A DNA stretch of 64,000 bases from Candidatus Saccharimonadota bacterium. Lineage in GTDB: Bacteria > Patescibacteriota > Saccharimonadia > CAILAD01 > BJGX01. Positions 62,042-64,000 of the stretch are shown piece after piece (within the stretch, counting starts at the first letter, position 1; each line of letters begins with the position of its first letter). The stretch spans positions 15,492-79,491 of the forward strand of contig JACPPH010000003.1 of NCBI GenBank assembly GCA_016191105.1, given 5' to 3'. A program made the position numbers and the translations under genes. Under the pieces are notes generated by a model. The model was not told the origin of the DNA. It saw only the letters and a list, made by a program, of their open reading frames with translations, and made no database searches.

Positions 62042-64000
62042 CTACAATGCCCGCCAATCAAATAACTTGTTGGTCTGCTCGGCAGAAGAGAGCTCAATCT
62101 CAAAACCAGCATTTGTTACATTGGTTACCCGATATTTGGTATTCAAGAAGTCGTGAGGAGTTAAAGCAATATTAGGAGCGCTAGCAAAGTTGCTCATAAA
62201 CGCTACACGAGTAGTGGTTTGACCAGCCGGCACTGTGGTTGAGCCAGTATTATTTTTGCTTAACTCTATCCGGCCGGTAGATTTAACCACCCCCTCAAAC
62301 TCCGCTCCGCCGCTAAACTGCACATTACCACTCAAAGTAGTTGGATCCGTTACAGTAGTTGGACCCGTTACAGTTAGGCCTTTGCTAATAGTGGCTGGTT
62401 GGGTAATGGTTAAAGCACTGGGGTTTGAGGTGTTAATAGCAGTGTTCAGAGCGTTTATCTTGCCAGCAGCGTCTTTTAAGCCCATGATCGTAAAGGTTAG
62501 TAATCTACCCTGGTTAATCATCTTGTACCCAGTAGTGGGGTCGGTGCTGACAGCTTCGGGGTAGATTTGTTCGACATCTTGAGCAATAAAGCCATATTGT
62601 AAGCTTCGGTCGCCACTGGCTTCGGCCGTCCAATTGTAGGTGACTGGTCGCAGTGCACCAACCTTTTCGAGACTCCCCAGCGTATCTAGGCTAACAATAT
62701 TGGTCTTGAGCCGCTCGTCTGAGGAGCAAGACCAGCCAGTGCCGACTGCCACAGTACATTGATTGGTGCCATTACTACCAGTGAATTTGGCGACGTTGGT
62801 GTTGGCTCCAGTGTCGACACCAAATAATTGTTGTCCACCGGCGCTTAAGACCTGAAACGCCGTAAAACTACTGCTCGTATTGGCAGTATTCTGAAAGGTG
62901 GCATAACCGGTACCGCCAGCAAAGCTCGCTACAGTGGAAAGACTGCGTAAAGTACTGCCGCTAGCCCCAGCGGCAGAGGTTTGGAAGTTAATAGCCCCGC
63001 CAATGGCTGAACCCGTGCCTCTACCATGTACCAATAAGCATAGTGGTGGAGGCTACTCCAGATTGACCGCCGCCAAATACAATTACATTTGTGTTGGTGC
63101 TAGTTGACCCCTGGCCAATAATAACACTGCCTGCTGAGGCGTTAGTGCTTGGACCAAAAACAACACTATTAGAACCGGTTGTTTTAGCGTTAGCTCCAAA
63201 AATAACATTGTTATCAGCTGCGCCAGTATCCACAGCGTTATAGCCAAATAGAACAATATTTTGAGCATTAGCAACACCAGTTGCTAATCGACCAATAGCC
63301 GTAGTTCTATCTGACAGTCCGCCACTGGCCACAGAGGCACCGTTGCCAACCGCCAACGTGTTGCTTGATGATGCCGAAGCACCTGAGCCCCAGTTTTCGT
63401 TGGTAGCATTAGTGCCAGGCACACTAATGGTAGCGCTATTAGAGCCCGTTAACACACCAGCCGAATTGAGTGTGAAATAGGTAGTGAGCGTGTTGGCAGT
63501 TGAGCTAGAAACACCGCTAGCAGGGCTCGTTTGAAAAACAATACTACCGCCAGCAGCTGCTGCCACCACCCCCCGTTGCCGAATAATTTATCCCTAGACC
63601 CGGGCTGCTATTTGTAACACCCGCACCAATAAAGACACTGGTTATGGCATTGGTGGTGCTGCCGTTAGTGCTGTCACCCACCACCAGCTGATTAGCAGCA
63701 GTGGTGCTAGCTCCAAAGCCAATCGCGATTGAGCTAGCAAAGCCGGCACTAGCGCTATTACCAAATGCTAACCCACTATTACCTGCCGATGCCGAACTAG
63801 CACCAAAATGCTCACTGTTTGTGCCAGCGCCCTTAATTGATATGGTAGCACCGTTTTGTCCGACCAACTGACATAGTTGAGCAGCCGAATTAGTACAATT
63901 AAAAGTTGTGTTAAGGACATCGCTTTGGGTCGTAATGTAGGTTGTATTGGCTGTCTTAATACTAAGAGGTTGCCCACAAGTACCTATGCAAGAACTAGTA
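62042..64000 (-). pseudogene. Gly/Ser/Thr/Asn-rich tail-fibre-like protein with C-terminal peptidase-S74 intramolecular chaperone domain; fragmented by frameshift; N-terminus beyond window
   Basis: The reading frame entering from the window end (...TCGQPLSIKTANTTYITTQSDVLNTTFNCTNSAAQLCQLVGQNGATISIKGAG...) runs to a stop at 63544. The next frame resumes at a GTG inside a G6 tract (63569-63574 on plus is C6). Removing one G fuses the two frames (ATGGGG|VVAAAAGG). The third piece (62042-63034, TTG start) carries SSDERLKTNIVSLDTLGSLEKVGALRPVTYNW...GFIAQDVEQIYPEAV, the hallmark of the S74 chaperone / auto-cleavage domain. Confidence 0.55.

Follow-up and report, generated by a model that had tools for sequence, protein, structure and literature searches.

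We analysed a 64,000-nt stretch of DNA (hereafter the window) from an 80,421-nt contig (JACPPH010000003.1) of a single Candidatus Saccharibacteria metagenome-assembled genome (MAG; locus prefix HYX70), which holds at one end the 3' two-thirds of a chromosomal gene from a Patescibacteria-wide family of long, phage-tail-fibre-like proteins. This gene is split by two +1 frame breaks into three pieces, which GenBank lists as separate coding sequences (CDSs). We conclude that both breaks are real and fixed and are very unlikely to form an on/off switch or to stem from sequencing error. Our favoured reading, which we hold tentatively, is that this locus and a second copy of it in the same MAG are fixed, disrupted copies, silent or decaying, from which no full-length fibre is made by normal translation.

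A first-pass annotation of this DNA had described three consecutive minus-strand open reading frames (ORFs) rich in Gly, Ser, Thr and Asn, and both the ORFs (63544-63867 and beyond, 63021-63569 and 62042-63034) and their composition, in which Ala is also abundant, were confirmed. It had also placed a frame change at a homopolymeric G6 tract and supposed that a 1-nt contraction of this tract would restore one long ORF. The plus strand indeed reads CCCCCC at 63569-63574, within the overlap of pieces 1 and 2, and deleting one C fuses these two pieces; piece 3, which carries the S74 domain, lies behind a second +1 break that is not in a repeat and is not restored. The shift point at the first junction cannot be fixed within the 41-nt overlap, hence is not pinned to C6, and may lie anywhere in 63547-63587. 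At this junction, frame 0 tracks the consensus of a conserved fibre module up to ATGGGG(S) and frame +1 tracks it from AAGGSIVFQTS, and about 16-18 residues that are present in intact modules (SGTDIAGA.LTIAGGKGTGN) are missing. The lesion is thus either a deletion of a length not divisible by three or a G5-to-G6 insertion in a module that is naturally shorter.

Junction 2 contains no homopolymer and no repeat. Its frame 0 reads UGG UAG and its frame +1 reads GGU AGA (Gly-Arg). A Saccharibacteria homologue that carries the fibre module (P0002, 38% identity over 432 residues) reads through this position (ITIAGGRGTGSAIGG; ...GATITIAGGRGTGSAIGGAINFQTT...) with strong identity on both sides, whereas the window reads ...STTMLIGTW followed by a stop, and then GRGTGSAIGGAINFQTS... 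in piece 3, so that one extra base between two GGT codons explains the break. Each of the two breaks is +1 and lies immediately 5' of the conserved second half of one of the two copies of the module (GGSGTDIAGA.L.IAGGKGTGNAAGG.I.FQTS.AGASGTTL) in this gene. All of the 23 other copies of the module, found in 17 loci of metagenomes, IMG/VR and two GTDB genomes, are in frame, preceded by open stretches of 141 to more than 1300 codons. The window contains 8 G/C runs of at least 6 nt against about 18 expected from its composition; the longest, a G7, lies elsewhere, inside an uninterrupted ORF, and the ORF tables show no comparable frame break at any of the seven runs other than C6.

The second copy was found by separate searches with pieces 2 and 3, which led to two proteins encoded on one 2970-nt contig of the same MAG. 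HYX70_03810 (P0075, 149 aa), which begins MAAAGGSIVFQTS... and ends ...NGGTGDNGIAIGSW (the end is also given as ...GGTGDNGIAIGSW) before its stop, is 66% identical to piece 2, and MBI2798388.1 (P0023, 344 aa), which begins MVALEIMGLLSVLGRGTGSAIGG... (the start is also given as MVALEIMGLLSVLGRGTGS...), is 72% identical to piece 3. We deduced the DNA at their junction from the proteins, by enumerating all DNAs that encode both ends in different frames. A single register is workable, AAT GGT GGC ACT GGA GAT AAT GGG ATT GCT ATC GGT TCT T GG TAG, in which the stop is TAG because Arg follows Gly in MBI2798388.1. On this deduced DNA, break 2 has the form GGT-NNN-T-GGT-AGA, with the same position and frame structure as in the window, although it is preceded by different codons. 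Its recurrence at an identical site in a diverged copy shows that break 2 is fixed and inherited and is not a switch. Furthermore, piece 2 of the second copy starts where that of the window does and is not flagged as partial, and junction 1 is probably broken in this copy too. Downstream of junction 1 the two copies agree in every one of the first 48 residues, and downstream of junction 2 in about 62, the remainder being 45-80% identical. Their start codons differ, GRG being preceded by a TTG start three codons upstream in one copy and by an ATG start thirteen codons upstream in the other.

On this reading, two functional paralogues may have diverged first, and gene conversion may then have spread the lesions together with the 100%-identical blocks; the conserved blocks that bear the lesions are probably shared by descent or by gene conversion between the paralogues, and the G6 tract would be incidental. 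A relic is also what the priors favour, since genes for surface proteins are often broken, whereas +1 recoding on chromosomes is very rare. Several observations weigh against it. In a neutral simulation of the window DNA for residues 67-330 of piece 3, about 150 substitutions were needed to reach the observed 33% amino acid divergence, and only 2.7% of the runs were free of stops (P(no stop)=0.027). Conservative replacements amount to 0.51 in the observed comparison and to 0.27±0.05 under neutrality, the observed value being reached in 0 of 2000 simulations, and all indels between the copies are in frame (a single one in piece 3 and several over the part of piece 2 that aligns). As judged from these sequence comparisons, the two copies diverged under purifying, protein-level selection, which a relic fits only if recent gene conversion spread the lesion-bearing blocks, and this version requires a lesion at the very edge of the conversion tract. 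Just 5' of break 2 the copies do not share the same sequence, a point in favour of an old break; if the breaks predate the divergence, decay would be expected of a dead gene, so that the pieces were kept open by selection and must be translated, as one chain or as several. Finally, Saccharibacteria have small genomes that usually contain few pseudogenes.

In a rival reading, recoding, a full-length fibre would be made from one mRNA by two programmed +1 ribosomal frameshifts, an explanation that we consider unlikely but of interest. At junction 1, peptidyl-tRNA-Gly would slip on G GGG GGU, with GGG re-pairing with GGG, and the G6 tract does allow such a perfect +1 re-pairing. At junction 2, a stop-codon-stimulated +1 event would take place at UGG UAG A, but this site has no slippery codon and Trp-tRNA on UGG cannot re-pair on GGU. 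Both breaks are +1 and both frame-0 ORFs end in NGG-UAG, although any GGT-AGN (Gly-Arg/Ser) codon pair in the +1 frame produces this ending automatically. Recoding agrees with the purifying selection and in-frame indels of the two copies, with the occurrence of break 2 at the same nucleotide position in a copy whose upstream flank has diverged, and with the lack of export signals in pieces 2 and 3, for which a single anchored chain, as in intact homologues, would be the sole route to the surface. Ribosomal protein L9 is a factor that restrains forward slippage, and its absence would suit such a mechanism. Saccharibacteria lack it (PMC8406219). On the other hand, there is no Shine-Dalgarno (SD)-like stimulator at the spacing found in prfB (a GGAG about 30 nt 5' of junction 2 is too far), and RNA folding over 101 nt around each junction equals that of shuffled sequences (z = -0.26 and 0.06). 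The half-modules 5' of the breaks are degenerate or deleted relative to a strongly conserved consensus, which is unexpected if they are translated as one piece, and the arrangement is found in the HYX70 MAG only, against the in-frame state of the 23 other module copies found. To our knowledge, chromosomal +1 frameshifting outside prfB is very rare. A related proposal, to which we likewise assign a low probability, is that the +1 breaks are themselves selected and that one mRNA gives nested, anchored fibre isoforms, with the S74 domain and lectin tip confined to a rare full-length chain.

Another way to keep all pieces translated is to regard them as three separate subunits, made from overlapping genes by translational coupling and assembled end to end like multi-protein phage fibres, with docking via the conserved N-terminal blocks. 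Pieces 2 and 3 do show the classic tail-fibre pattern, with conservation in an N-terminal block and growing variability towards the C-terminus, the half-modules 5' of the breaks are relaxed, and NCBI annotates three CDSs. Moreover, the same genome contains a functional ABC ATPase/FtsX pair whose genes overlap by 26 nt with a TTG start, and most genes lack an SD motif anyway. We nevertheless find this improbable, more so than recoding: pieces 2 and 3 have neither signal peptide nor anchor, which puts the surface out of their reach, and the norm in the family is one anchored chain; the two copies do not share their start codons; the split cuts a module that is contiguous everywhere else; and no phage or tailocin genes are in view.

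An assembly or sequencing artefact is very unlikely. The true gene would then be intact and the two extra bases would come from the assembly of a strain-variable, repeat-rich region, as might be suspected from the position of the gene at a contig end (P0001 is 5' partial), from the variant copy, whose contig has a length of just 2970 nt, as is typical of tangled assembly graphs, and from the fact that each break falls at the 5' boundary of a block shared without change by the two contigs. However, the same extra base would have had to arise in two contexts (ACA-T-GGT and TCT-T-GGT), and de Bruijn assemblers do not invent k-mers. The longest internal DNA repeat in the gene is at most 28 nt, which leaves no source for a mis-join, and every other long gene of the window that we checked is intact. 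A systematic homopolymer error was rejected in view of these intact genes and of the lack of comparable breaks at the other seven G/C runs. The sequencing indel that the first-pass annotation had offered as an alternative is thus improbable, the break being present on two different contigs.

The same annotation had seen in the G6 tract the signature of slipped-strand phase variation. In its favour, a G6 lies within the junction-1 overlap, where removal of one G fuses pieces 1 and 2, and the gene encodes a surface protein, the usual target of contingency loci. We give this explanation hardly any weight: after any change in the G tract, translation still ends at the TAG at 63021-63023, before the S74 domain needed for folding; phase-variable tracts are typically longer than six bases; G/C runs of this length are under-represented in the window; and the second copy, whose junction 1 is probably broken as well, points to a fixed state. 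The same strain or a close relative, sought for tract-length variants and for the 5' end of the gene, was not found in genome and metagenome contig collections.

The identity of the gene as a tail-fibre-like, Gly-rich protein with an S74 intramolecular chaperone, proposed from SDERLK...GFIAQDVEQIYPEAV, is well supported. Piece 3 matches Peptidase_S74 (PF13884) at 68 bits (gathering cut-off 22; E=8.5e-19), over profile positions 1-57 of 58. It contains SSDERLK, and S105, D106 and K110 are invariant across a 19-sequence alignment. A sequence-only search of piece 3 against the PDB gave no match and a profile search was needed; the profile built from the 19 sequences matches 6f45 (long tail fibre distal subunit, 4e-14), 8jov (tail fibre), 7dc3 (MYRF ICA) and 3gud (phi29 gp12), its consensus sSDeRLK aligning to SSDRRIK in 6f45 and to SASDERLK in 8jov. 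PHROG matches are to tail-fibre families. In the AlphaFold (AF2) model of piece 3, the first 80 residues are poor, the S74 region is moderate (predicted local distance difference test, pLDDT, 70-89) and the last 70 residues reach a pLDDT of 88-97. The top Foldseek match of this model is MyRF ICA (7dc3, E=1.3e-5, template-modelling (TM) score to target 0.63), with the endoNF chaperone 3gw6 scoring below it. The long helix that is predicted after the S74 domain may be the coiled-coil stalk of the chaperone and is followed in the AF2 secondary structure by short beta-repeats at residues 208-252.

The C-terminal sandwich resembles H-type lectins in its predicted structure. Foldseek matches it to SLL-2 (3wmp, E=1e-3, TM score to target 0.53), to the Helix pomatia and Helix aspersa agglutinins (2ccv and 4q56, E=6-8e-3, TM score to target about 0.5) and also to discoidin II, and H_lectin (PF09458) falls below its gathering score over residues 274-322 (19.8 bits against 24, E=8.7e-4). 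It is the most variable region between the two HYX70 copies, with 53% identity against 80% for S74. Of note, the putative ligand-binding tip lies downstream of the S74 cleavage site, and self-cleavage would detach the tip and the chaperone together unless the tip stays bound, an order opposite to the phage arrangement, in which the chaperone alone leaves. From the known biology of the family, we suggest that an intact fibre would consist of three chains anchored by their N-termini, in which the C-terminal S74 domain would trimerise, nucleate the folding of the shaft from the C-terminus and then cut itself at Ser105 by means of a Ser-Lys dyad, while the ligand of the variable, lectin-like tip would be a glycan, plausibly one displayed by the host cell of the episymbiont.

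An exhaustive search yielded 1010 relatives at E<1e-10, although for many of them it is chiefly the S74 domain, itself widespread, that matches; those that match all of piece 3 are mostly 800-2800 aa long and match at their extreme C-terminus. Intact relatives share an architecture made of an N-terminal transmembrane anchor, a long shaft rich in Gly, Ser, Thr and Asn, the S74 domain, a coiled coil and an H-type-lectin-like tip. The hydrophobic transmembrane anchor is present in the full-length Saccharibacteria members that we read, namely P0003, P0077, P0081 and the open frames of 800-1800 codons at candidate loci L003-L009. P0077, a close relative of the L004 frame, has a collagen-like GxT/GPx segment just after its anchor. 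Two S74 motifs with long open frames upstream occur in each of four Saccharibacteria loci of 15-21 kb (L003, L004, L009 and L016), and S74 fibres seem to be a multi-copy family in these genomes. The fibre module, for its part, is carried by a part of the family: it is present in metagenome contigs and IMG/VR viral contigs, sometimes in 2-3 copies per protein, is limited to L002 and L018 among the candidate loci from GTDB genomes, and is absent from the closest full-length Saccharibacteria relatives.

Other S74 genes of Patescibacteria are uninterrupted, apart from cases with in-frame stops. In one of these, at 2500-6774 of L108 (GCA_965188215.1) and in an independent Logan assembly (L109), an S74 fibre gene is cut by an in-frame TGA (3322-3324) and a TAA (5110-5112), the fibre-like sequence resuming right after each stop and the gene calls being alike in the two assemblies. 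This could reflect stop-codon readthrough, recoding or a pseudogene, and the presence of the interruption in two assemblies of an unrelated gene indicates that the interruption of these long genes is not unique. P0025, considered as a second frameshift-split fibre, was rejected, as it is interrupted by in-frame TGA and TAA stops with no frameshift. Of the short S74 proteins whose start seemed to coincide with that of piece 3, P0192 and P0214 lack an initial Met, P0078 is apparently a fragment of one of the long relatives, and P0157 is a separate, short protein. In the literature searched, we found no paper that links S74 or tail-fibre domains with Saccharibacteria or Patescibacteria, or that discusses this fibre family.

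The first-pass annotation had left the choice between a prophage remnant and a host-attachment fibre. Our analysis points to the latter as the better fit, given the anchored homologues and, where neighbours are annotated, their housekeeping surroundings. A tail fibre of a prophage or tailocin, encoded at the end of a phage-derived cluster that would continue past the contig, would concern the identity of the gene and not its breaks, and we find it barely credible: the PHROG tail-fibre matches, the presence of the module in viral contigs and a gene that runs off the window, with its upstream neighbourhood beyond the contig end, are set against a downstream region made of a sulfatase, unannotated proteins and the 23S and 5S rRNA genes, against closest full-length relatives that have N-terminal membrane anchors, which virion proteins lack, and that lie among ATP synthase and gyrase genes (P0003, an intact homologue of 1068 aa with an N-terminal transmembrane helix, is flanked by ATP synthase and gyrB/gyrA genes), and against the several Saccharibacteria loci with two S74 motifs. 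The features of the gene are collected in Table 1.

Table 1. Features of the split fibre gene, in window coordinates.
Feature	Position	Strand	Description
Piece 1	63547..64000 and beyond	minus	Fibre-shaft ORF, C-terminal 151 codons in the window; stop TAG 63544-63546; HYX70_01770 (P0001, 100% identity), 461 aa, 5' partial; ends ...INYSATGGGGSSCWR
Junction 1	63547..63587	minus	Pieces 1 (frame 0) and 2 (frame +1) overlap by 41 nt; holds C6/G6 in low-complexity GGGGGGTGGTGGCAGCAGCTGCTGGCGGTAG
Piece 2	63024..63566	minus	HYX70_01765 (P0074, 99% identity), 181 aa; open from 63587; stop TAG 63021-63023; conserved N-terminal block AAAAGGSIVFQTSPASG..., then YadA-head-like Gly/Ala/Ser/Asn repeats; ends ...GGGQSGVASTTMLIGTW
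Junction 2	63021..63052	minus	Reads ATT GGT ACA T GGT AGA GGC; extra base near 63026
Piece 3	62045..63034	minus	MBI2798010.1 (P0022, 100% identity), 330 aa; open from 63052; TTG start; stop TAG 62042-62044
Fused chain across the junctions			Would read ...NYSATG(G)VVAAAAGGSIVFQTSPASG... (junction 1) and ...STTMLIGT(W/G)RGTGSAIGGAINFQ... (junction 2)
Fibre-module block GRGTGSAIGGAINFQTSAAGASGSTLRSLS...FQVL	62837..63025	minus	Piece 3 residues 4-66; identical in the second HYX70 copy from GRG onward
Peptidase_S74 / intramolecular chaperone auto-processing domain	62549..62722	minus	Piece 3 residues 105-162
Putative nucleophile Ser105	62720-62722	minus	In the S74 domain of piece 3, with Asp106 and Lys110
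Predicted long alpha-helix	62438..62512	minus	Piece 3 residues 175-199 (AF2 secondary structure)
C-terminal beta-sandwich, H-type-lectin-like	62045..62257	minus	Piece 3, about residues 260-330

GenBank names piece 3 'tail fiber domain-containing protein', no NCBIfam model matches any of the three pieces, and the YadA_head match in piece 2 is weak (E=0.23). The contig ends about 0.9 kb past the window, and the fibre gene probably runs off it. No phage or tailocin genes are in view within the window, on the downstream side of the gene, the upstream side being beyond the contig end. The nearest neighbours are small unannotated proteins and a GC-rich sulfatase. This sulfatase gene (Pfam Sulfatase and SGSH_C; 60264-61907, plus strand) has a GC content of 58% in a genome at 47%, encodes a hydrophobic N-terminal segment and a Ser/Thr-rich linker, and probably specifies a horizontally acquired, exported enzyme; it is convergent with the fibre gene, and a terminator-like hairpin lies between the two (61988-62012). 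The 23S and 5S rRNA genes are found 4 kb from the fibre gene. In this region (54181-58158, minus strand), the 23S match spans 3546 nt on a model of 2925 positions, which implies about 620 nt of insertion(s); the 5S gene is adjacent (54181-54290), and 16S was not found anywhere in the 64 kb, which indicates that the rRNA operon is unlinked.

Elsewhere in the window, IleRS, FtsW/RodA, two Lnt-like proteins, the ABC/FtsX pair and a type ISP restriction enzyme are encoded by long, intact ORFs with full-length domain matches. The restriction-modification enzyme (1033 aa; 765-3863, minus strand) has N6_Mtase, Eco57I and Type_ISP_C domains. At 42483-48149, two paralogous apolipoprotein N-acyltransferase-like genes (LNT_N and CN_hydrolase) bracket the MacB-like ABC ATPase/FtsX permease pair, whose overlapping ORFs have their TTG start at 44849. 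Genes at 48-54 kb, considered as an ATP synthase operon, were ruled out as such and encode Big_7-domain and unannotated proteins: three Big_7 (bacterial Ig) proteins on the minus strand (48173-49012, 52009-52566 and 52592-53155) lie around two large proteins (49031-50536 and 50557-51948) that match no Pfam family, and the cluster at 48173-53155 may be a second surface-protein locus. Most genes of the window lack an SD motif, and a TATACT/TATAAT-like box lies just 6-12 nt 5' of several start codons (the observation covers many gene starts, e.g., 6288, 16653, 24624, 44099, 48149 and 50536), which suggests that leaderless or SD-independent translation is widespread in the HYX70 genome.

Saccharibacteria live on bacterial hosts, to which they are attached by proteins that are only partly known. 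An anchored, S74-chaperoned and lectin-tipped fibre family that is widespread in Patescibacteria is a sensible candidate for a host-binding fibre; to the S74 identity our analysis adds a lectin-like tip, a membrane anchor at the N-terminus of relatives and the chromosomal setting. The locus of the window matters less in itself, as it stands as a broken copy and the phase-variation switch was not upheld. The point of potential importance is the identical frame break in two copies that diverged under purifying selection. If ribosomes do bypass the breaks, a chromosomal gene for a surface protein would carry two programmed +1 frameshifts, a rare case among bacteria; they would set the dosage of an attachment fibre and would be in keeping with the absence of ribosomal protein L9 from the phylum.

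Several known systems bear comparison with this gene. The C-terminal chaperone/S74 domains of phages (endoNF CIMCD 3GW6, phi29 gp12 3GUD and 6F45) and MYRF ICA (7DC3) share with piece 3 the PF13884 match, the S-D-x-R-x-K motif, the predicted MyRF ICA fold, the place after a Gly-rich shaft and the long helix that follows. In contrast to the phage domains, the domain described here is not terminal, since about 130 residues (beta-repeats and the H-type-lectin-like part) follow it, and it belongs to a family of membrane-anchored bacterial fibres and not to a virion protein; its cleavage and trimerisation are predicted from sequence. Close counterparts are the proteins of Saccharibacteria and Patescibacteria that PGAP names 'tail fiber domain-containing protein' (P0003, 1068 aa; P0077, 1110 aa; P0081, 1882 aa), which have the same S74/coiled-coil/lectin-like cassette, 33-49% identity, a Gly-rich shaft and endings like ...F.W.A[LF]. 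They are single uninterrupted ORFs with an N-terminal transmembrane anchor, whereas the window gene and its HYX70 sibling are in +1-staggered pieces. The predicted sandwich at the C-terminus is like that of H-type lectins (Helix pomatia agglutinin, coral SLL-2 and the C-terminal domain of discoidin II; TM score about 0.5), although sequence identity is 14-21% and the Pfam score is below the gathering threshold. H-type lectins form trimers, which would suit the tip of a trimeric fibre. The repeats rich in Gly, Ala, Ser and Asn resemble the YadA head of trimeric autotransporter adhesins, and YadA-head PF05658 is precomputed for the sibling P0075 and several homologues; unlike these adhesins, the fibre has no C-terminal beta-barrel and no outer membrane context, its anchor would be N-terminal, as in the family, and its folding would depend on S74.

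As regards the breaks, the gene resembles the poly-G/C contingency loci of Neisseria, Haemophilus and Campylobacter in having a G/C run at a frame change in the 5' part of a surface-protein gene. It differs from them in that the tract has 6 bases and is not over-represented, that the second break makes an ON state unreachable and that the pattern is fixed in two copies. With programmed +1 frameshifting (prfB CUU UGA C, structural genes of Listeria phage PSA, Euplotes AAA-UAA/UAG) it shares the +1 direction, the A-site stop at junction 2, the re-pairing G run at junction 1 and a break kept in a diverged copy. Unlike these systems, junction 2 has no slippery P-site codon, the gene shows no SD-like stimulator at the prfB spacing and no downstream RNA structure, and the conservation of the break is limited to one MAG.

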